From positions 10,051 to 74,050 of the IMG/VR virus record IMGVR_UViG_3300038412_000083: a stretch of DNA of 64,000 bases; one strand, written 5' to 3'. Every line of letters starts with the position of its first letter. Within the stretch, counting starts at the first letter, position 1. Shown piece after piece: positions 2,645 to 64,000 of the stretch. A model generated the notes under the pieces. It was not told where the DNA came from. It saw only the letters and a list, made by a program, of their open reading frames with translations, and did no database searches. Origin of the DNA: a virus. Its lineage: Duplodnaviria; Caudoviricetes. Made by a program: the position numbers and the translations under genes.

Positions 2645-3792
2645 TGAAAAATAATATTGTTATGGATGATACGAACATTAGAAAAGGGAGGTGAACTAAC
2701 ATTTACCGTTACTTCTCCGTAAACCGTTTGTCCATCATCCTGTGTAAGTGTATTTCTAAAAACATAAATTCCTGTCGTTAATCCTGTTACTGTGGTACTT
2801 GCAGAAGTTGATGAAGTTATTGTTGCAGCAGGCCCGCTTGTTTTCGTCCACGCATAAGTACCTGAATGACCGGCGGCCCATATAGCTGTTGAATAAATAC
2901 TTGTTGAACTTGTACTGATAGCCTGATTGCCCGACATTGAAACAGTAGGGGCATCCGCTATATCTGAAACGTCTTGATAAACTTTATAGCTTTGGGTTAC
3001 CAAAGAAAATCTTCTACCCCTTGTTGTACTATCTACATTAACCATTGCACTATTCCAATCATACAACCCTCCGAACTTCACATAATCGTCAAAGTGCCCT
3101 ACTTGTCCTGTATCACGCCTATATTTTGTAACCCCATCAACTTGCAAATGAAAGAATGCTGTTTGGCCTGTATAGCCTTTACCTTCTCTGAGTGTTACCC
3201 TTACTGTATGTGGTATATTATACCAACCAGATAAAGTTCCAATTGTGGTATTAGCCGTAACAAGTGTTCCACCCCCTACATCATGTACATCACCGCTTAT
3301 TAAATTGCTGCTTGTATCAAGATCAATTCCCCACACTGTTGCAACCTGAGTAAGACTATGAATCTGCATAGCCACTAAAATTTGATACCAACTTGTTAGA
3401 TAATTATAATTTTGTGGAAAATAACCTTTCCATTCAAGCGTGTAAGTATGGGAAGTATCAATAGTGAAACTATATTGCGAAAGTGTCATTTCTGAACGTG
3501 GGTAGCCAGACCCAACAGGTGTACCATCTTTAATTGTACTCCATAATGCACCACTTTTGATCTGCTCACCAAAACCTGCATTTCTTCCTACATACCAATT
3601 AACGCTTGCAGCATCGTAAAATTCACCATAAGGAGTAGTATTTTCGGCATAAAATAAAGTAGTATCTGCACCATTTATTGATGTTAGCGCATTAGCATCT
3701 GCCATATTGAAATTATACAACAAAGTGCTGCTCGTAGGCATCTGAGCCTTTACAATAAGTGGGAAAAGAAATAATATGATTAGTTTTTTCAT
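2641..3792 (-). CDS. Secreted polysaccharide-lyase-like protein with a C-terminal PKD-like domain
   Basis: Signal peptide (...LIVKA-Q); RSEM / MQIH / YVKFGGLY motifs as in jelly-roll polysaccharide lyases; YAWTKTSGPAATITSS...GLTTGIYVFR PKD-type repeat. Confidence 0.55.
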   Translation of the reverse strand: MKKLIILFLFPLIVKAQMPTSSTLLYNFNMADANALTSINGADTTLFYAENTTPYGEFYDAASVNWYVGRNAGFGEQIKSGALWSTIKDGTPVGSGYPRSEMTLSQYSFTIDTSHTYTLEWKGYFPQNYNYLTSWYQILVAMQIHSLTQVATVWGIDLDTSSNLISGDVHDVGGGTLVTANTTIGTLSGWYNIPHTVRVTLREGKGYTGQTAFFHLQVDGVTKYRRDTGQVGHFDDYVKFGGLYDWNSAMVNVDSTTRGRRFSLVTQSYKVYQDVSDIADAPTVSMSGNQAISTSSTSIYSTAIWAAGHSGTYAWTKTSGPAATITSSTSASTTVTGLTTGIYVFRNTLTQDDGQTVYGEVTVNVSSPPFSNVRIIHNNIIFQ

Positions 3793-6700
3793 TAATTATG
3801 GTTTTTCGTTCCTATTAAAGTGACAGATAAATAAGTTGGCTTTGTTGTGATTGAAGTCAGTTGACACCACACCCAATTACCAGGCGGTATCTTCGCATTA
3901 TCAAAACTTGTTACCGTTGTTCCTGTGTAAATATCTGTTGCTGCACTTCCAGCATTTACCAATTTAGTTGCCCCTGCTGTCACTCCCAAAGAATCATTAA
4001 AGTAAATTGTAACTGTCACAGAAGGAGAAGTTCCCTGCAATCCAATCTTCATTTTAGTAATATTCAAAGTGTCGGTACCTGAATTGTACATAGAACCATA
4101 GATAGCACTTGTGCTCGCTGCAATCGTATCTGCGGCCAGTCCTGAACCGTAACCGAAGGAAAGGAGTGGGATTGTGTCTCTACGCTCTACAATATTTCCT
4201 GTTGAAGTTACTGAGAGATCATAAGCTGGTGTGCTTTGGAAGTTACCTTGTCCGTATTGATTTAATTGTATTTTGCCGTCATTATTGAACACTACTTTAT
4301 CGTGAACTACACCGTTAATATCTGAAGTGTCTTTTGTGCCAAAATGGATAGACGCTCCACTTGAACCTGCTGATATTTTGTCGGCAATAAAAGAGATATT
4401 TGCCTCTTCTGATGAAGAACCGGAACTTGTTGGTAATCCAGCTTTTATAGAATATCCCTGACCTGCTACTGTAGAAGTTGAAAAACCATTTAAGGAAACC
4501 ATCGGAGAAATAGTGCCGGATATATCTGTCCTTTCAGCATAGAAAGGTGCTCCAGTAGATGTACTTGAATAAACCCCCAAACCTGTTGTATTTACGGCTT
4601 TTATTGCCTGTGTTGCAGTCGAATAATTTGAATAAATACCATTATCTGTGAAACTTATCTTATTTGTTCCAGCACCCATTATGTACAACTCTTTACTGTT
4701 TAATGTCAATGAGTCTGTTTTTGTCAGATTTCCACCTAACTCAACATCATTTCCAGTTTTTGTTAAACCATTTGAAGCGGATAAAATACTTAACGCATGA
4801 ACACTATCCACATATTTTTTATCAGGAACAGTAAGGCTGTCTGCTGTAGTCATTGTGGGATTGGTGGTGTATTTAGCCTTACCAATTACTGAAATGCCAG
4901 AACTGTCAACCTGTAATTCCTTTATTCCTTTAGATATTAATTGTATAGGTTTAGCACTATATAGCACACTCGCGTAAGCAGATGAACCTGAGTAAAATCC
5001 TCCCGCAGTACTACCTTCTTGTCCAAGATAAAATGAACCACCTGCATTATTAAACTTATTGTATGTATAGCTGGTTCCTGAATATGTTTGATTAAGAAAG
5101 ATATTTGAAGATGAGGTTATTGTCCCTGATAAATTAAGTGTTGTTCCCGTAAGTGTTGTTCCCGTAAGTGTTGTTCCCGTAATTGTTGTTCCCGTAATTG
5201 CAGATGTTGAAATTAATGGATTATAAAAATAAATTCCCGCATCATTAATTTTAGCCCTCATTACTGAATCCGTATAAAAAGTCATATTTCCCCCCCACGT
5301 AGTATTCCTACCAACATTAAATTGTAATTCTGCTACATTAGGTTGCATTTTTATAAAAGATTCCGGTGTTGTATAGTTGTAAAATATAATCCCATATTTA
5401 TTGCTGTTAGAAGTGGTTGAGAAACTTAATACAGGTGCAGAAGATGTTAGTTCTAACATACTTTTGGGTGTTCCTGTACCTCCCAGCTTCATAGAATCAG
5501 TAGATGAATTACCCTTATCCATCACGCTTTGTAAGCTCGGTATTGATGATTTTGAATCATATAAATTCCCCTTATTATTATGCCCAGCAAAAGCCTGAGC
5601 AATTATATTCCCCAGAACTATACTTCCATAATAATTTGGGTGCAACCCATCTGATGTAAGAGTGGGGATTGTTTGTAAATTAAAGTTTGCAAGAGCGTGT
5701 AAGTCAATACACTGTACACCATAATTAGCGCATATTTGAGAAATCAACACTTCCAAATCTGTGAGTGTCCACCCGGCTGAATTAGTTGCATGATAAAGCA
5801 CCCCTGCGCCGTTAGCTTCAGGCGGAGTCATTACATATAATTCAATATTCGGATTAGCGGATAAAATGGATTCTATCATGTGTTTTAAATACCCTGCGCA
5901 AGTCGTTCTATTTGATGAGTCATTTACAGTACCCAAAGAATCGCTCGCTGCAAAATCATTTACGCCTAATAAAATACTTGCTATATTGAAGGAATTAAAA
6001 TAGGTTGGATTGGCTGATAAAATTGAATCTAATTTTGCAGATTGTTGATAAAACCTATTACCAGAAACGCCGTTTGTTACTGTTCCTGTAAGATGAAGCA
6101 ACGTATCAACCCTTCCGTAATAATGATTGGATGTAGCAGAAAAACTATCCCCAAATATTACCCATTTCTTCCAATATGGATTCCTGTTTTGATTAAGTGT
6201 ATCTGTAATATTTGCCTTCAATCCATTTTGATAAAGCGTTGTCCAACCTGTTGTTGAGTTGGTGGAATCTACTTTACGTAAATACGGACTAAGCATTGAT
6301 GCTGTGTCTGAGATGTTTAGTTTTGTTATATCGTTTAAGTGACCTTTTTTTACAGTGTCTTTATCCATCCATACTACACTATTTATGTCAGCATTTGCAC
6401 TATCTACCTTTTTTAATGTGAAATCGCCATTGGTTTCAAATGCTCCCATTTCACTGTAAGGGTGTAATCCATATTGTGATCCATAAGGATAAGCTACTGA
6501 ACCTTTACTAAATACTATTCTGCCTGAATTACTTGAAAATTCCATACCCCCTGAACCATTGGTACTAATTATTGCACCATCTGTTTTAAGATCATTAGTA
6601 GTACTTCCCATCATTAATTTTAACCAATGCCCTGTCCATTCATCTGATGGATTATCGGCTACATTATTCTTAAATACAAAGCCTGTTGCTGCCCAATTTA

Positions 6701-17469: not shown

Positions 17470-20400
17470 TTATTCCCCTATCTGCTGTTTAAATTCAGCC
17501 GTTTTTATTGCCTTTTCATGTGCTTTGATTTTAGCATCATGCTTTTCTAAATTAGTTTCGTGTGGTTTCTTAGCCTCTTTTTCTGCCAATAATTTCTTAA
17601 GTACTTCCTGCCGCCATCCAGGTACGCCCATTTTTATATTATCCATGAAGGTTTTAGGATAAATACCTACTTCATAAGGCTTCACTTTTTCTTCGTGTCC
17701 TGATTTTATTCCAAACTTATTAAGTACAGGTATTTGTCCTTGTGCAATCTCAGAACTGGTAGTAGAAAATGGTGTTCTTGCTTTTATGAAGTTAGCAGCG
17801 GCTTTCCCCAATCCTTTACCGGTAACAAGCGGGTTAATAACTGTGCTGGCTGATTGAAGATACGGAGAAGATGAGCCTACGCTTCTTGCGTTTTCTGCAA
17901 GTACATTCGGAAGGGAACCCATGAATGTTGACATACTTGCTTCGCCGGGGTGTTCTTGATCATATTTATCCCATACCCATCCATGCGAAACGCCGGCATT
18001 AAATACAAGGGCATCCGGAAAGTGAGAAAGTGTTTCATATAATTTTAACCAGGGACTTTCTTCATCACCCTGTTTTTGTTGGGCATATTTACTTGCAGAA
18101 GATTGGTAGAATGGATTAAAGTGAGAGTGCAACGCATATCCGAGAGCATACGTAAGCGCACCAACGCCCTGAAAAGTAAGCGTTCTAAGTAATACAGATT
18201 TTTCGTTTTCTGAAAGTGGTGAATCCTTACCTAAAGCATTGGAAAATATCTTAAATATTGGTTTATACGCCGCTGTCATTCCAACCACAGGCATTTTAGT
18301 CAAGGCTTCACTAATGTAGTTGGAAGAAATCTTAGTGATTGGCGCAAGTCCTTTTACTAATTCAGCCCCGTTAGGCATTCCCCTTCTTCTTAAACCCTCC
18401 TCCATATCACCTTGTAATTTTGTTACAAAGTTATCCTGCATAAATTTAGCACGTAAAGACTTCCTAAAGGCACGTTGATTAATAGCTTCCTGCAAAGTAG
18501 CATTGCCTAGTTCTTCCGGTTTCACACCTTCCCTGATTAGGTTGGCGCCAATAGTTTTTTGATACGCCCTATATTCGGGTAGAGAAACAAGAGACTTTTC
18601 TGCACCATGAAGTGAAGCATTCTTATCTAATACCTTCATTGTTTGGAAGAAGGAGTTTTGTATAAAAGTTTTCATACCTGTTACCTTTATATCTGGGATA
18701 GGTAACTTCTTATAATTGCGGCCAAGAGTTAAATCTTCCTTCGTATTGTGATTTTTAAAGGCAAACTTCATATCCTGAAAGTTCTCTTTACTGAATAAAG
18801 TAGAATAGAAGGTAGCAATATGTTCAGCAAGATCGTGTCTGGTTGTTATAGCTTCCGTATGAGCACCTTTTGCAAGTTCCGGAAACATTTTACTTACTCC
18901 ATATTTTACGGCTTCTGTTGGCGCTTTAAATGTAGCCCTCCCAATTACGGAACCTATGATACGTGCAAGGATGACGGGATTGGATATTAAAACACCGTTG
19001 ACGAACCTGTTACCCCAATGTATAGCCTTACCAAGAGCACCCATATTATTAAACTCCCGTATGCCTATCATGTTATCAACATCATTCTTAACTTTTTGTT
19101 GTTCGGCACGTAGTTTTAAGGCTTCAGCATCAAGTACGGTTTTCTTCTTAACCCTGTCAGCCAAAAGTTTATCAAGATTATTAGTATCTCTGATTTCTTT
19201 AAGATACGCAGTTCTCTTAGCGATATTTTTCTTCATGGCCTCCAACTTCCGGCGATTGGTTTCACCTTCGGCATCCATAAGTTTATTATAGACGTTCTTT
19301 AAATCTTCACGTTTCTTTTTGAGCGCATCAAGGCTTTCACTTTTAAGATCGGTTTTCTTATTTTGTGAGAAGTCTTTATTGGAAATACGTTCAGTTAATT
19401 TGTCAATAGATTTTTGAACGGCTTTTGAGGCTCTCTCTATTCTATCTTCATCAGTTAATTCCTTGTTGGTGCCGAATACTTTATCATACTCATCACGTAA
19501 ATCATCTCTTTGCGCTTTCAGATCGTTTGCTTCCTGATCATACTCAATCCCTTTTCTGTCCTTAACGATTTTTTCATTACGGTCAATAGCATCGGATAAA
19601 TCCTCAATCTGATTTTTTAAACGGGTTTTTGCGGCATCCAGGGAAGTCTTGATTTGTTCTTCCGGTGACTTAACCTGAATATTATTGTCTTTTATAGCCT
19701 TGTTAAGCTCTTTTTGCAGCCTTCGTTGTTCAGGTGTAGGCTTATCTCTTTGAGCGCCGGATTTAAGCGGATTTTCGCCCTTGTTGGCAAGTTCTATACT
19801 ACTTACTAATCTACCTTGTGCGGTAATATCTCTAAAGGCTTTTTCTACCGGATTATCATTTGGCTTTTTAATCTTGCCGTAGCCTGTGATAGCATCACGT
19901 ACAGAAGTTTTATCAATATCAGGATTCCCAAGAGCATCAACAACGTCTTTATGTACCCTGTCAATTATTTTATCCAGTATAGCTTCTTTACCAACAGCCA
20001 AACCTTCCTCGATATAACTTTTAGCCAACTTTACAAGATCGGGCACCATGTCAAGAGGAATGATATTGTTCATACCAGCACTTCCACCCTTAATATGATT
20101 TTGCCACTTGTTTTTTAAAGAGGCTTTTATATTTTCACGCTCAAATTTTATCTTCTCTATGGTACGCTTACCTTGTGATTTTACCTGTGATTTTACTTCT
20201 TTTGCAAGGTTGTCAAGTGCGCCCTGTTGGTCTGCATTATTTTTACGATTTTCTTTCTCACCTTCGATAAGTAATTTAAGGTCGCTTATTTCCTTTTCTG
20301 CTTCGGCCTGCTTCGACTGCATATCCTGAATAGACAAGTCTTTGCTTTCAACCTGTTTTGCAAGGTCTCTTAATTTATCTTTTACGTGCTCAGGTATATC

Positions 20401-40870: not shown

Positions 40871-41229
40871 GCTACGAAGTAATAGGAAAACTAATTTTCA
40901 AATCAGAAACTATCCAGCGTACAGAAACATTTAAAGTACGTGATTTTGTACTGGAGCAAACCGAAGAAGCCAACAGTAAGACCTTCATTAATTACATCAA
41001 ACTACAAGCATCACAGAACAAAGCAGACTTACTCAATGATGCAAATATTGGAGATGAATTAAAGGTGCAATTCAATCTTCGCGGATCTAAGTACGAAAAA
41101 GACGGGAAAACCTTGTACTTTACCAATCTTGATGCCTGGAGAATTGAAGTAACTAATAAGCTGGAAAAGAAACCGATCATAAGTGAGGCAGAAGTGGTAG
41201 AGGAAACATCAGATGATCTTCCGTTCTGA
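40867..41229 (+). CDS. DUF3127 family OB-fold (SSB-like) protein
   Basis: IGDELKVQFNLRG...YFTNLDAWRIE; acidic DDLPF tail. Confidence 0.8.
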   Translation: MSYEVIGKLIFKSETIQRTETFKVRDFVLEQTEEANSKTFINYIKLQASQNKADLLNDANIGDELKVQFNLRGSKYEKDGKTLYFTNLDAWRIEVTNKLEKKPIISEAEVVEETSDDLPF

Positions 41230-44657: not shown

Positions 44658-45911
44658 ATGAGAAAGACAATTAAAAATGTTAATGGCTGGGATGTTCAAA
44701 TATCAACCGGTAAGAATTACAAAAATATTATTTCCTGCACTGCTCAATTTGGAGTATGTGAGGAGCGCAGCGGCTATCAGACATTTTCACACGCTTTATT
44801 TTCTGATCCTTCTTTGACACTTGCGCAAGCTAAACCAGGCGAAAGGGCAACAGAAAAGAAACTCTTGGAAGTGTTTAACGCCGGATTGGCTGAGTTTGAA
44901 AGATTAAAGGAAGCGAACGAATTACCAATTAAAAAAGATGCGTTGGAAATTCAAGTCGGCCAAATTCTATTTTTAAATGGTTACGGACAGGACGAACAAG
45001 GGCACGAAAGACTTGCCGTTTATGAAATAGAGGGGAGCAGGTACAAAACCGTAAATCTTGAAACACTTACTTTATCAACAGAAGAACACATTAGGCCAAT
45101 TGAAGAAAAATTTGGCATCGGTATTTATTACAAAAAAGGCGATGTGATAGAAGTTAATGAAGTAAAAGCCGCAGTAGCAGCCGCAAGAGTAAAAGTAGAA
45201 TTAAAAGAAAAGGCAGACAAAGAACAGCGCGAAGCCGCCCAAATTGAGAGATCAGAAAAAATAAAAAAGGGCGCTGAGATTATTAACGCAATCCCGGAAG
45301 GCGTAAGCCATGCGATCGTTGCAAATCTTATGGAAGATGATAGCGACATCCAAAGCGATTATTTTGCAAGTCATTCAACACAAACAGTTTTTTTAGCTTT
45401 TAGTAAACATGGCCGGGATTTATTCGACGAAATGAGAAAAGCCGCCGCCAATTGTCCTATTGAAGAAATAAATAAATACAGTGTAAAGCCAGAAAAACCA
45501 GAAGGAGAAAACGAATTTTGGACACCGGAAGACGAACACCGCGAAAAGTATAGTATGGGATCTGGTTATTATTTAGGCAGCCAGTACAGAAGCGGCTGGG
45601 AAATAAGTAAGACTAATATAGACGGCCGCAGCCTGGAAGCCTTACAAATTGCAGCCGCCGAAGGTCGCTATTTTATCCCGGAACAAAGCGAACAGACGGA
45701 AGTTAAAAACTATTCTCCAGTTGAAGTAAAGGCCGGAACTGTTCAAATAATAGATTACAGCGAAAAGGCGATCGCCGTAATTGGTGACACAAAACCGATA
45801 AAAGATAAATTAAAAGAATTGGGGGGTCGTTTCAATTTTCGTCTTTCTTGTGGCGCTGGCTGGATATTTCCAAAGACTAAATTAACCGAATTACAAAGTG
45901 CATTAGTCTAA
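44658..45911 (+). CDS. Multi-domain leading-region protein (Bacteroidota 'fusion protein' type); start moved from 44610
   Basis: DDSDIQSDYFASH...EHREKYSMGSGYYLG module and C-terminal IIDYSEKAIAVIGDTKPIKDKLKELGGRFN...GWIF module. Confidence 0.6.
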   Translation: MRKTIKNVNGWDVQISTGKNYKNIISCTAQFGVCEERSGYQTFSHALFSDPSLTLAQAKPGERATEKKLLEVFNAGLAEFERLKEANELPIKKDALEIQVGQILFLNGYGQDEQGHERLAVYEIEGSRYKTVNLETLTLSTEEHIRPIEEKFGIGIYYKKGDVIEVNEVKAAVAAARVKVELKEKADKEQREAAQIERSEKIKKGAEIINAIPEGVSHAIVANLMEDDSDIQSDYFASHSTQTVFLAFSKHGRDLFDEMRKAAANCPIEEINKYSVKPEKPEGENEFWTPEDEHREKYSMGSGYYLGSQYRSGWEISKTNIDGRSLEALQIAAAEGRYFIPEQSEQTEVKNYSPVEVKAGTVQIIDYSEKAIAVIGDTKPIKDKLKELGGRFNFRLSCGAGWIFPKTKLTELQSALV

Positions 45912-45961
45912 CTGATGAGCCGTAAAGCGGCGAAACTTGGCCTACGGGCTAAGTCTTAGAT
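45906..45961 (+). ncRNA. Type I hammerhead ribozyme
   Basis: Stem I TCTAA/TTAGA; core CTGATGA; stem II GCCG-TAAAG-CGGC; GAAA; stem III CTTGGC/GCTAAG; GTC cleavage triplet (45953-45955). Confidence 0.85.
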
Positions 45962-59937: not shown

Positions 59938-60186
59938 TCATGCTATTTCTTTTTTAAGGAGGCGTAACCGTTGTAGTACGCTGTTGGCTACAATTTCAAA
60001 ATTCCGATCTGTTTCTTCTAACTGGAACCAGCTACCTTTGTAAGTCCTTAACCATACCCGGTCTTCATGCGTGGCTATTTCTTCAATTCCAATGATCGGA
60101 GTATGAGGCCTCGGCTTTACAGATACCGGCGTATCAAACTTTATTTCTTCGCCGGTTAATTTTATTATTTCTTCTATCTTGGTCAT
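59938..60186 (-). CDS. Hypothetical protein
   Basis: 82-aa ORF. Confidence 0.5.
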   Translation of the reverse strand: MTKIEEIIKLTGEEIKFDTPVSVKPRPHTPIIGIEEIATHEDRVWLRTYKGSWFQLEETDRNFEIVANSVLQRLRLLKKEIA

Positions 60187-60191
60187 GGCTT

Positions 60192-60725
60192 CTATTTTGG
60201 CAGTGAAACTTTAAAGGAGGATTTTGAAGATTTGGAAGGACGGTAAATAGTGTAAGTGTCCCCAGTTTCAGGATCGGTTATTAATAACCCTTTTTCCGGC
60301 ACTGTTTTTAAAAACTCTTTTCTTTCTTTTAATTTTTCAGCAATACTTTTTGAGGCTTCTTCAAGTTGGATAAGTTCCTGATCATTGCACTTTGAAAAAT
60401 CAAAAGTGCTTCCCACTTCTGCCAGTGTAAACTTTACGCCTCTCTCAGTGGTAAATTCTGCCTTATCTCCTCCATTGCCTTGCTTCTGAATTTCTTCCAT
60501 CAAATAATCAATAAATTCTTTGTCGGGTTCGATTTTAGAAGCGCTATCGCCGCTTATCTGCTTATCCAGGGCCGCAAAGAATTTTATTACTTCAATGTAT
60601 TCAAAAGCGCCGCCTTGTTCGTAAATGCGTTCCTTTGCCTGTTGGTGGAATGTTTTAGCATTCTGTTTGGAAAGTACCGGGATATGATCCGGTGTTAAGA
60701 CGATTTCTAAGTTTTCAGTTTGCAT
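60192..60725 (-). CDS. Conserved phage hypothetical protein
   Basis: 177 aa, coupled to ERF; FDFSKCND...DPETGD...P motif. Confidence 0.6.
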   Translation of the reverse strand: MQTENLEIVLTPDHIPVLSKQNAKTFHQQAKERIYEQGGAFEYIEVIKFFAALDKQISGDSASKIEPDKEFIDYLMEEIQKQGNGGDKAEFTTERGVKFTLAEVGSTFDFSKCNDQELIQLEEASKSIAEKLKERKEFLKTVPEKGLLITDPETGDTYTIYRPSKSSKSSFKVSLPK

Positions 60726-61293
60726 GGCTTAATTCATTTACTGCGTTATTTAATAAGGTTTCTACTTCTTTTGATACTTTCATTACTTCCCTGATCTTTG
60801 CAATTGTAGTTGTTCCTTCTCTCAATTTCTTTACAGCGCCATCAAATTCTTTAGTATTTTTATTTAACCAAGGCTTGTTATTCTCAGCAGCTTTCTCAGG
60901 GGTTTTGCCGCCGTGCGTAGCTTCATTTGCATCATCATCTTCATCAATGTTTAACCCTAAAACAGCGGCAAGGGCGTATCTTCTTTGATAGGTAATTACC
61001 GATCCTTTCCCTTGTGGATCATTTTTTACCGGTTGCATATTGTAATCACTTTGCAGGTATTCTCCGCTTGTGTGCATCAGGATGGTTGTAAGTCCGTTTT
61101 CGCCTGTTGGAAATTGAGAAAATGATAATCCACTTTCTTCCAAAGGAATTTGAATTGCCTCTAAAATATTTGAAAGAGAGGCGTATTTGCTTTTAAAGAA
61201 AGGGTTTGTAGCATCCTTTTTTACGGTTTCAACTTTTATATGAAATTGAATAATGGCCTTTGCTATTTCCTGAATTGAGTTACTTTTTTCCAT
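60715..61293 (-). CDS. erf: ERF family ssDNA-annealing recombinase
   Basis: NPFFKSKYASL...GSVITYQRRYALAAVLGL...DDDAN. Confidence 0.9.
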   Translation of the reverse strand: MEKSNSIQEIAKAIIQFHIKVETVKKDATNPFFKSKYASLSNILEAIQIPLEESGLSFSQFPTGENGLTTILMHTSGEYLQSDYNMQPVKNDPQGKGSVITYQRRYALAAVLGLNIDEDDDANEATHGGKTPEKAAENNKPWLNKNTKEFDGAVKKLREGTTTIAKIREVMKVSKEVETLLNNAVNELSHAN

Positions 61294-61389
61294 GATCTTT
61301 AATTTTAGTTTTTGTTTTAAAAAATTGGAGCGAGTAGAAACAAGCCCCGTTTTACGTATTGCTTGATATGAGACCGTTTAATAATTTTA

Positions 61390-61470
61390 AAAATTGGCTG
61401 TCTTTCCAGCCTGTCAGCATCTTGAATCCTTATCTTCTAAAGCCTCACAAGACTGCGAATATTGGCTTTA
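61390..61470 (-). other. Structured leader upstream of erf (two hairpins)
   Basis: TGACA-GGCTG-GAAAGA-CAGCC followed by T-rich sequence; AAAGCC...TCGCA-GTCT-TGTGA-GGCTTT. Confidence 0.45.
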
Positions 61471-61549
61471 AATTCGTTTGGGTAGGCCAAACTCCGTGTA
61501 GCTGAATTTCACACACTACAATCCACCCTACTTGGTATATAAAAGGTTG

Positions 61550-61669
61550 TTGCGTATGCAGGACTCGAACCTGCGACCTACTGAACCGAACCTTAATAGT
61601 TTTTTAAGGTTTCCTCTACCACAGGACTTTACCGAATACAATCGCTCTAACCAACTGAGCTAATACGCA
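61550..61669 (-). tRNA. tRNA-like gene with a 46-nt insertion in the anticodon loop (anticodon TCG if the insert is removed); no encoded CCA
   Basis: Acceptor TGCGTAT/ATACGCA; D arm GCTC-AGTTGGTTA-GAGC; T arm GCAGG-TTCGAGT-CCTGC; variable loop AGGTC. Confidence 0.75.
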
Positions 61670-61869
61670 AACTATTTCAAATAACTTTTTCTTTGGAGGT
61701 TAATAACCCATCTTTCTTGTGGTTCAGCTATGCTGGTTTTTCATCTTTCTAACTGTTCCGGTATGCCCGGTATATTTCCTTTCTCTCTCCCTTACCCCTA
61801 CATCCCAAACTGCTTTTGAGGCTACTGAGAAAATTATTAATAATGCTGCTGCCAGGTATAAGAGTATCA

Positions 61870-62244
61870 TTATTGTTGAATTTTTGTTTTATCAATAGCA
61901 AGTCCGGCTTCTATTAATCCGAAAAGATCAAAATGTTTTGAAAGAAGAAAAGCAAACCGGTTAAATTCTGTTGGTTCTCCTATAGACATTTTTGCTTTTT
62001 CGTCATATTCCCATCTTTTAGTGTCTTCTGAAAAAGAAATATTTTGGAAGTCTGAATATTCTTCCTCTGTCATATCGTCAAAAGGTCTTAGCACCAATTT
62101 TAAATCATTGATTTGATCATATTTTAGCAGCATTAAATCTGCATAAAATGTTGGCGTTATCGTAAGATCAAGTTTTGGATTTGATACTGATATACCGTGA
62201 CATCCGATATGGTAATGCAAATAATCTTTAAGTTCTTTTTTCAT
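61870..62244 (-). CDS. Hypothetical protein
   Basis: 124 aa; KLVLRP...LLSKHFDLFGLIEAGLAID motif common in Bacteroidota phages. Confidence 0.65.
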   Translation of the reverse strand: MKKELKDYLHYHIGCHGISVSNPKLDLTITPTFYADLMLLKYDQINDLKLVLRPFDDMTEEEYSDFQNISFSEDTKRWEYDEKAKMSIGEPTEFNRFAFLLSKHFDLFGLIEAGLAIDKTKIQQ

Positions 62245-62438
62245 GATTCAATTTTTTCAAGCCATTCGTTTAAAATTTTGTTTCCTTCAATTTCGTGTCG
62301 AAATTTCTCCACTCGTTCCCAATATTTTCGGGTCATTTCATCCTCCATTTCCTTTTCAACATCTTTTTTAGCGTCATTAATCATTATAAAAATGAAGATT
62401 AAGTAGTTTGTGACAAATCCGGTTATAAAGTATATCAT
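62241..62438 (-). CDS. Small membrane-anchored protein
   Basis: N-terminal TM segment. Confidence 0.5.
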   Translation of the reverse strand: MIYFITGFVTNYLIFIFIMINDAKKDVEKEMEDEMTRKYWERVEKFRHEIEGNKILNEWLEKIES

Positions 62439-62476
62439 AGTAGTTTAGTTTTTACCAGTTACGAATATCGGTTTCA

Positions 62477-62698
62477 TCATCCTTGTCCGGCTTCGGTGTA
62501 TGCCTGATTGATAAGGCTACTGAGGCTATTATTACCAGTACATAAATTATTAGTGCCCATTTCATATTGCAGTTGTTTTAAGCGGTTTATAATAAAGTGT
62601 TCGTGTTTGCGTGACTTTGCTTCCAGTGCCAGGTAATGATCAAATCTTTCATTCACAAAGTCTTTACGGTCAGGGTTGGGCATTACGTAGTTTAGCAT
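62477..62698 (-). CDS. Hypothetical protein
   Basis: 73-aa ORF. Confidence 0.5.
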   Translation of the reverse strand: MLNYVMPNPDRKDFVNERFDHYLALEAKSRKHEHFIINRLKQLQYEMGTNNLCTGNNSLSSLINQAYTEAGQG

Positions 62699-62867
62699 GG
62701 TTGATCTTTTTCGTTATTCATAATGTCAATCATTTGATCTGAATTCGATTCTGAGTTCTCTTCTTCATCAATATCATCTTCTTCCCATTCACAATGCTCT
62801 TTACAATCAGGACAAATACCGTAATCTTCGTTTCCATTTGCGGGCGCACCGCAGCAATCTGATATTA

Positions 62868-63542
62868 TCATTTGATGTAAATTTTAAACCCTGCACCGGC
62901 GAAAAAGCTATGTGCCTGGGTAATGAATAAATAATAATTTCCGTAATGATTAGCTGCCGTCGTAAAGTCTTTACCCAACTCAATAGAAGTGGCTAAAACT
63001 GTCTTGTTGATTGCCTGGATTCCTTTTACCGTATCATGGTAATGAGCAATTCCGATTAAAGGAGTAACTTCAAAATTGTTCCCAATTTGGTAACCAGCCT
63101 CAGCATAAGTAATATTTGATACTACCGTGCTGCGGGAGTAAGGGAACAAAGAGCCGCCTTTAAATTCCATATGGTGAACGATAGCACCGGCATTAATTCC
63201 CATCCTGTTACCGGCTTCACCTGATACAAAAGCCTGTGAATAACATAAAGAGGTAAGCAATAGGAAAGCAAGGCACGCCGTTAATTCTTTCCATAAAGGA
63301 TTTGATTTTTGTAAAGCCAGTGTTGGGGCTTCTTCTTCCTCAATCGGATTAAGTTGTTCGTTAATCGCATTTAGAGCCGCCTGATCTTTCCATTGCTCAG
63401 TAACAAGCCCTTCGATTATTAGTTGAAATTCATTTGCTTGCTCAGTATGGTAATCAAAGTCTTTTTTCTTTTTAGCGATCAAAGATTTTGAAAGGGCGAT
63501 TTTAGCCTCAAGAAGCTGTTTTGATTCTAATAAGGCGTTCAT
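62868..63542 (-). CDS. Apparent fusion of an 83-aa coiled-coil protein and a signal-peptide-bearing small outer-membrane beta-barrel protein
   Basis: Internal KELTACLAFLLLTSLCYS-Q signal sequence; alternating beta strands ending GAGFKIYIK. Confidence 0.55.
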   Translation of the reverse strand: MNALLESKQLLEAKIALSKSLIAKKKKDFDYHTEQANEFQLIIEGLVTEQWKDQAALNAINEQLNPIEEEEAPTLALQKSNPLWKELTACLAFLLLTSLCYSQAFVSGEAGNRMGINAGAIVHHMEFKGGSLFPYSRSTVVSNITYAEAGYQIGNNFEVTPLIGIAHYHDTVKGIQAINKTVLATSIELGKDFTTAANHYGNYYLFITQAHSFFAGAGFKIYIK

Positions 63543-64000
63543 AGTTTAATCATTTTTGAGTTTTGTAATGAGTACCATGTGTCAGCCTCTATTTTTTTAC
63601 CATCTACTTTTTTTGAAACGATGCTTATAATTTCAAGGTTATCATTTCTTTCAGCAAGAACGATCCATGAGCCGAGCGAAGCCTTAGCCTTATTCTTGTA
63701 ACCAACCGCAACCGAAACAGATTCTTTGGCATTAGTTTCAGCAGATGAATAGTTACTGATTGTAAATGCCGCTCCGTTGTAACCTGAATTGCTGGCCGCT
63801 CCGCCGTCACCTGAATTGCTGGCCGCTCCGCCGTCACCTGAATTGCTGGCCGCTCCGTTGTAACCTGAATTGCTGGCCGCTCCGCCGTCACCTGAATTGC
63901 TGGCCGCTCCGCTGTAACCTGAATTGCTGGCCGCTCCGCTGTAACCTGAATTGCTGGCCGCTCCGTTGTAACCTGAATTGCTGGCCGCTCCGCCGTCACC
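63539..64000 (-). CDS. DUF7666-type repeat protein, 3' part (runs off the right edge; different frame from the ORF track)
   Basis: (GAASNSGxx)n, then ...AKASLGSWIVLAE...KVDGKKIEADTWYSL; TGA overlaps the next ATG. Confidence 0.8.
   Translation of the reverse strand, partial: GDGGAASNSGYNGAASNSGYSGAASNSGYSGAASNSGDGGAASNSGYNGAASNSGDGGAASNSGDGGAASNSGYNGAAFTISNYSSAETNAKESVSVAVGYKNKAKASLGSWIVLAERNDNLEIISIVSKKVDGKKIEADTWYSLQNSKMIKL
63768..64000 (-). repeat. 8 full 27-bp tandem repeats plus partial copies, three variants (GDG, GYN, GYS)
   Basis: acctgaattgctggccgctccg + ccgtc/ttgta/ctgta. Confidence 0.95.

Follow-up and report, generated by a model that had tools for sequence, protein, structure and literature searches.

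A phage tRNA gene with 53 nt in place of its anticodon loop and a loop sequence repeated around a short insert

Introduction

Lak megaphages of Prevotella (Bacteroidota) have 'enigmatic' introns in their tRNA genes (Devoto et al. 2019, PMC6784885, Table S6). The Lak introns are 79-114 nt long, lie after position 37 and are identical across cohorts (PMC6784885). They carry a T-arm-like GGTTCGA motif and a closing stem, which gives them a tRNA shape, and they were the only published phage tRNA introns that we found.

We know of no removal of short, non-self-splicing tRNA introns in bacteria. The bulge-helix-bulge (BHB) motif of archaeal and eukaryal tRNA introns consists of two 3-nt bulges with a 4-bp helix between them and lies at both splice sites. 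A group I intron has a terminal G and requires about 200 nt or more for its catalytic core (P3-P9). tRNA-shaped RNAs that do not decode include the stable RNAs C and D of phage T4, and engineered tRNAs in which hairpins replace the anticodon loop are still processed and accumulate. Such tRNA scaffolds, with RNA placed in the anticodon stem, reportedly gave stable expression in E. coli in the hands of Ponchon and Dardel in 2007.

Group I introns interrupt the anticodon loops of bacterial and phage tRNAs (reviewed in PMC3984707), and the YrlA Y RNAs of bacteria and phages are tRNA-shaped and do not decode (PMC4201824). Here we analyse an interrupted tRNA gene in a 64,000-nt stretch of a phage genome (the window), which makes up most of a 74,050-bp IMG/VR virus record, and compare it with these systems.

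Results

A complete tRNA body around an enlarged anticodon arm

Exactly one match to an Rfam RNA family was found in the window, a tRNA at 61550-61669 that is also the sole tRNA match in the whole 74,050-bp phage genome. It spans model positions 1-71 of RF00005 at 51.2 bits (gathering score 29). The parts of the gene, taken from the cmscan alignment and for the 5' body also from the sequence, are:

61550-61669, minus strand, whole tRNA-like gene, 120 nt (Rfam RF00005, 51.2 bits)
61638-61669, minus strand, 5' body
61669-61663, minus strand, acceptor 5' strand
61660-61644, minus strand, D arm, then base 26
61642-61638, minus strand, anticodon-stem 5' strand AUUGU
61550-61584, minus strand, 3' body
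61584-61580, minus strand, anticodon-stem 3' strand UCAGU
61579-61575, minus strand, variable loop
61574-61558, minus strand, T arm
61557-61551, minus strand, acceptor 3' strand
61550, minus strand, discriminator A

The first-pass annotation had described the acceptor, D and T arms as canonical, and this was borne out by the full-model Rfam match, by the acceptor (7 bp), D (4 bp) and T (5 bp) stems, which are paired at every position, and by the presence of the usual conserved tertiary bases. A canonical anticodon arm with a 7-nt loop and a 5-bp stem was not found. The stem contains a U-U mismatch, and the Rfam alignment places 53 nt between its two strands where a 7-nt loop is expected, which confirms the observation of a tRNA with 53 nt in place of the anticodon loop. 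CCA is not encoded at the 3' end of the gene, nor in most tRNA genes of the related host genomes examined. ARAGORN, suggested earlier as a check on the gene, missed the unedited gene with default settings and, under its intron option, modelled it implausibly as Phe(aaa) and gave it a long variable arm; the product of a 46-nt deletion was recognised as tRNA-Arg(tcg).

The loop is repeated around two potential hairpins

The 53 nt between the anticodon-stem strands contain these elements, located from the sequence (for the first loop copy also by enumeration of excisions) and, for the hairpins, by folding:

61631-61637, minus strand, first loop copy AUUCGGU, which contains TTCGGT copy 1
61636-61631, minus strand, TTCGGT copy 1
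61591-61630, minus strand, 40 nt separating the TTCGGT copies
61590-61585, minus strand, TTCGGT copy 2, preceded by a G (loop copy 2 reads GUUCGGU)
61626-61612, minus strand, hairpin 1, 4 bp with a 7-nt loop
61589-61611, minus strand, hairpin 2, perfect 8-bp A/U-rich stem with a 7-nt loop

The direct repeat TTCGGT-[40 nt]-TTCGGT had been reported before and was recovered at 61636-61631 and 61590-61585; the copies lie exactly 40 nt apart, each flush against one strand of the anticodon stem. A 6-mer repeat at these flush positions arose in 0.025% of shuffles, and any 6-mer common to both 22-nt edges, a looser test, in ~7%. After the first loop copy comes AAAGU, which imperfectly repeats the 3' stem strand; over the loop and the next five bases, the two copies agree at 9 of 12 positions. 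Going beyond the earlier description, the repeat is in fact ~12 nt long, imperfect and extended over the loop and the 3' stem strand; these are in effect duplicated around ~34-40 nt of new sequence.

The insert had also been called structured; by folding energy it is not significantly so. Both hairpins can form, and a perfect 8-bp stem was obtained by chance in 0.35% of shuffles; however, the energy of the entire insert does not set it apart from shuffled sequence (z = -0.49). The full two-hairpin model proposed earlier has -28.1 kcal/mol and lies 3.8 kcal/mol above the minimum-free-energy fold. The 3' arm of hairpin 2 extends into the second TTCGGT copy. In a folding ensemble with fixed tRNA arms, the normal anticodon stem reaches a probability of only ~2%, and some insert bases are paired there with the 3' stem strand and the variable loop.

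Like a miniature transposable element the insert is flanked by a direct repeat. It has no terminal inverted repeats, and no other copy or source of it was found in the phage genome or in the collections searched. A 14-nt identity between the hairpin 1 region and window positions 41194-41207 is probably due to chance (unrelated flanks, E about 0.01-0.02). A relation to the palindromic elements at 52.6-54.7 kb was rejected: there is no common sequence, and CCTTA...TAAGG occurs at chance frequency.

The insert belongs to no known intron class

No match to group I or any other Rfam family was obtained in or around the insert, even at an E-value of 1. The gene resembles group I cases in the interruption of the anticodon loop of a bacterial-type tRNA, but the insert measures 46 nt and has no Rfam match; a group I intron is ruled out on both grounds, in agreement with the original argument that it is too short.

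Archaeal and eukaryal BHB introns are similar in size range and in their site in or beside the anticodon loop. However, when all cut pairs were enumerated, no BHB could be drawn for any 46-nt excision, and the splicing endonuclease family PF01974 is absent from the phage. It is also absent from all ten bacterial control genomes and was detected in the archaeal controls only.

The likeness to the Lak introns is closer and comprises tRNA genes of Bacteroidota phages, an interruption in the anticodon arm, short length, no Rfam match and a tRNA restored upon removal. In contrast to these introns, the insert at 61550-61669 is 46 nt long, flanked by a duplicated loop and without relatives, and it lacks the T-arm motif. 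A tRNA-shaped mini-intron of the Lak type was rejected, as neither a GTTCRA T-arm-like motif nor a tRNA match is present inside the insert.

With YrlA, and likewise with RNAs C and D of phage T4, the gene would have in common a tRNA frame that is recognised by tRNA enzymes and carries a non-decoding domain. The topology of YrlA is the opposite, and its GNCGAA-type Ro60 motif beside a Ro60 gene has no counterpart here: a role as Ro60/Y-RNA handle was rejected, with the GNCGAA-type/GGUCCGA motif absent from the insert and no TROVE (Ro60) gene in the phage. RtcB and an Rnl2-type ligase are not encoded by the phage either. A Bacteroides control genome carries both RtcB and Ro60, and a host ligase is therefore conceivable.

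The tests exclude every known intron class. In a broad sense the gene does belong with the phage tRNA genes that carry short inserts of this kind: the insert lies in the anticodon arm, is not group I, and its removal restores the cloverleaf. Apart from this gene, the window was scanned for ribozymes, and none was detected by Rfam at the gathering threshold, including at 45907-45960, a region proposed as a hammerhead.

Excision would yield a poor arginine tRNA

Wherever in the repeat the 46 nt are cut out, the product is the same. It has the anticodon TCG and the U31-U39 mismatch that the first-pass annotation had predicted for it. Cuts at 39/40 or 30/31 instead give 5/5 anticodon-stem pairs in the excision enumeration; these two alternative cut points with a perfect stem are new relative to that annotation. 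ARAGORN classifies all three excision products as tRNA-Arg(tcg), and the restored loop core UUCGG and the T arm are the same as in a Saprospiraceae tRNA-Arg(UCG).

The elements of arginine identity (A20 with C35 and G/U36) are incomplete. C35 and G36 would be present only after excision. Position 20 is U, in line with the reported absence of the A20 determinant, which is found in 5/5 Arg tRNAs examined (four from Lacibacter and one from a Saprospiraceae genome). The restored tRNA would further have a purine at position 32, and its body most resembles the Asn/Met/Val/Gly types. Of the Arg codons in the phage, CGA is used least (50/811 overall, 12 in late genes), so that there is no codon-supply reason to keep the tRNA. 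With U20, the purine at 32 and such a body, the restored molecule would be a poor arginine tRNA. Codon reading is probably not possible for the gene in its present form.

The gene lies in a variable slot of a phage that very probably infects Bacteroidota

The surroundings of the gene comprise the following features, of which the terminator-like element comes from a consensus scan only:

61294-61869, minus strand, non-coding gap holding the gene, 576 nt
61870-62244, minus strand, upstream 124-aa ORF
60715-61293, minus strand, Erf-type recombinase gene, downstream
61396-61411, minus strand, terminator-like hairpin and T run

The terminator-like hairpin follows the tRNA at a distance of ~140 nt and precedes the Erf gene. 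Upstream of the tRNA gene no sigma-70-like box stands out and the Bacteroidota box TAnnTTTG is absent. The flanking non-coding RNA is not unusually structured.

The phage encodes portal, terminase and integrase-family genes. The nearest relatives of its terminase in cellular genomes are in Lacibacter and Puia, followed by Saprospiraceae and Flavobacteriia, which makes a Bacteroidota host very probable. The tRNAs near the Lacibacter prophage-like TerL are unrelated to the gene. The 81-nt 'direct terminal repeat' of the record (1-81 and 73970-74050) sits within a 27-nt tandem repeat, so the record may have been called circular or terminally repeated on account of an internal repeat.

A near-identity search of 60000-64000 against GenBank phages revealed no homologue, and a distant search with the tRNA returned generic arm matches only. 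Exact and degenerate patterns found no real homologue in IMG/VR, a 21-mer had only a chance match to a coding gene in JGI metagenomes, and a 24-mer from the tRNA 3' end had 0 matches in 185,579 species genomes. The two phages nearest by TerL (55% and 35% identity) contain no tRNA, and none was present beside the Erf relatives in other assemblies (84-88% identity) or beside relatives of the 124-aa ORF (55-57% identity), where other small genes follow directly. At about 61312-61320, shortly before the Erf start codon, similarity to the closest Erf-carrying relatives breaks off, which marks the tRNA region as a variable slot. Together with the lack of a homologue, this synteny break identifies the gene as a lineage-specific addition at a variable spot. 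Its absence from all relatives found adds to what had been noted before.

Interrupted tRNA genes occur in other viral contigs

A pattern defined by the D-arm and T-arm type of the 61550-61669 gene with a gap of 50-80 nt matched 21 IMG/VR contigs and 0/401 Bacteroidota genomes searched. In at least 6 of the 21 contigs, a perfect Asn(GUU), Lys(UUU) or Pro(UGG) arm results when 44-56 nt are removed from the anticodon-stem 5' strand. The inserts of these contigs sit at 28/29 to 29/30 and mostly start with UA, and two of the contigs have a CAGCAA-like motif in common. The duplicated-loop layout was seen in none of the 21.

Discussion

We favour, at somewhat better than even, the reading that a tRNA-derived gene was altered by a DNA-level insertion with target duplication, and that the insert stays in its RNA, which is non-decoding. 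The insertion into a tRNA-type gene would have enlarged the anticodon arm and duplicated its target, the loop and part of the 3' stem strand, around ~34-40 nt of new sequence. The RNA would be made and trimmed like a tRNA, by RNase P at the 5' end and by RNase Z with CCA addition at the 3' end; CCA addition is assumed because host tRNA genes also lack CCA. The mature RNA would then retain the insert without decoding. Engineered tRNA scaffolds behave in the way that we infer for this RNA, although they are artificial and imply no natural role. Two readings seem about equally likely: the gene is kept as a tRNA-shaped RNA, for a putative role in transcript processing or stability or as a decoy, or it is a young relic. 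The flawless rest of the tRNA body fits selection on tRNA shape and a recent event alike.

Several lines of evidence argue for this reading. The direct repeat flush with the stem strands is the expected trace of a DNA insertion with target duplication. Retention of the insert is favoured because no removal signal of the group I, BHB or tRNA-shaped kind is present and because the phage has no RtcB, Rnl2-type ligase, splicing endonuclease or Ro60. U20, the purine at 32, a body nearest to the Asn/Met/Val/Gly types and the rarity of CGA speak for a non-decoding RNA. The low share of the normal anticodon stem in the folding ensemble and the position of the gene at a synteny break, missing from relatives, point in the same direction.

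Other results count against it. As no homologue was found, covariation and conservation lend no support to any function, and there is no recognisable promoter. An insertion would call for an inserting agent, and the insert shows neither terminal inverted repeats nor a source elsewhere in the genome. In many other phage tRNA genes the removal of short inserts restores perfect anticodon arms, which suggests a removal route in some phage-host pairs, and excision here restores a valid cloverleaf with a loop core as in Bacteroidota tRNA-Arg(UCG).

These last points lead to the main rival, in which the 46 nt are a short intron, removed from the RNA by a host endonuclease and a ligase such as RtcB to give a decoding tRNA with anticodon UCG. 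We regard this as unlikely, yet as a serious competitor, since the class taken together points to the existence of some removal route. Excision within the repeat, or at 39/40 or 30/31 with 5/5 pairs, gives a tRNA-Arg(tcg) valid for ARAGORN whose loop core UUCGG and T arm equal those of Saprospiraceae tRNA-Arg(UCG). RtcB does occur in a Bacteroidota control genome. The interrupted pattern in 21 IMG/VR contigs, at least 6 of them with a perfect arm on excision, as against 0/401 Bacteroidota genomes, also fits an intron, as do the short non-group-I inserts published for the Lak phages of Prevotella (PMC6784885). However, the insert carries no BHB, group I or tRNA-shaped signal, its boundaries are kept in no homologue, and a true intron has no need of a duplicated loop; the missing A20, the purine at 32 and the rarity of CGA argue against a decoding product. 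The first-pass annotation had left the choice between a non-decoding mimic, a mini-intron and a pseudogene with a target-site duplication. The exclusion of known intron classes, the lack of codon demand and the lack of arginine identity shift it towards a non-decoding RNA or a relic and away from an intron.

The gene belongs to a known, published but unexplained oddity of phage tRNA genes, here as a single, weakly supported copy. Splicing of any such phage insert would mean that bacteria or their viruses possess a route of RNA cutting and joining not yet described; if none is spliced, the tRNA frame would serve phages as a carrier of other RNA domains. What sets the present gene apart is its layout, in which 40 nt of filler are enclosed by two copies of the loop, and its carrier, a small Bacteroidota phage of temperate type and not a giant phage.

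A variant with a low probability makes the duplicated loop itself functional. Both UUCGGU copies might be the target of one anticodon-loop endonuclease, either of host defence or dedicated, and the insert might then be a nuclease-dependent 'intron' joined by RtcB, or the RNA a double-site decoy for an arginine-tRNA-specific nuclease. If this were true, cuts at equal positions in both copies followed by RtcB joining would give the same mature tRNA wherever the repeat is cut.

The repeats could also act at the DNA level. Occasional deletion by slippage or recombination between the perfect 6-nt copies (~12 nt with the imperfect part) would regenerate one loop, and a minority of genomes with an intact tRNA would make the insert an on/off switch. 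We consider this quite improbable, because the repeats are very short for efficient slippage and an insert-free allele was found in no collection searched.

Anticodon loops of tRNAs are frequent targets of integrases, which leave behind a duplicated core. The imperfect stem-strand copy after the first loop copy is attL-like and the phage has an integrase-family gene, which would agree with an attachment site of a tyrosine recombinase or with the remnant of an element integrated into the anticodon loop. Such a site or scar has little likelihood. In a phage attachment site the 3' part is identical to a host tRNA and the integrase gene adjoins; here the 24-nt tRNA 3' end, with 0/185,579 species genomes matched, is no copy of a known host tRNA end, and the recombinase gene is 11.6 kb distant. 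A full 5' half is moreover unexpected in an attP, and 40 nt are too small for an element.

Least probable of all is an assembly artefact, for although the record is a single metagenome assembly whose 81-nt end repeat lies within a tandem repeat, the insert is unique sequence, neither a repeat collapse nor a k-mer loop, and similar inserts occur in many independent assemblies.

Some other viral contigs have layouts of their own. One IMG/VR contig carries at 3742-3870 a tRNA with an anticodon-arm insert that contains a T arm and then a D arm, and this insert looks like a permuted tRNA nested within a tRNA. In a record with the CAGCAA-like motif, two interrupted tRNA genes (118 and 135 nt) lie 6 nt apart at 18908-19166, with normal tRNA genes adjoining. 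Three separate viral contigs have a nearly identical insert of 52-53 nt (1-nt indel) in the same tRNA-like gene, with an extended closing stem; these three form a conserved family, unlike the gene at 61550-61669.
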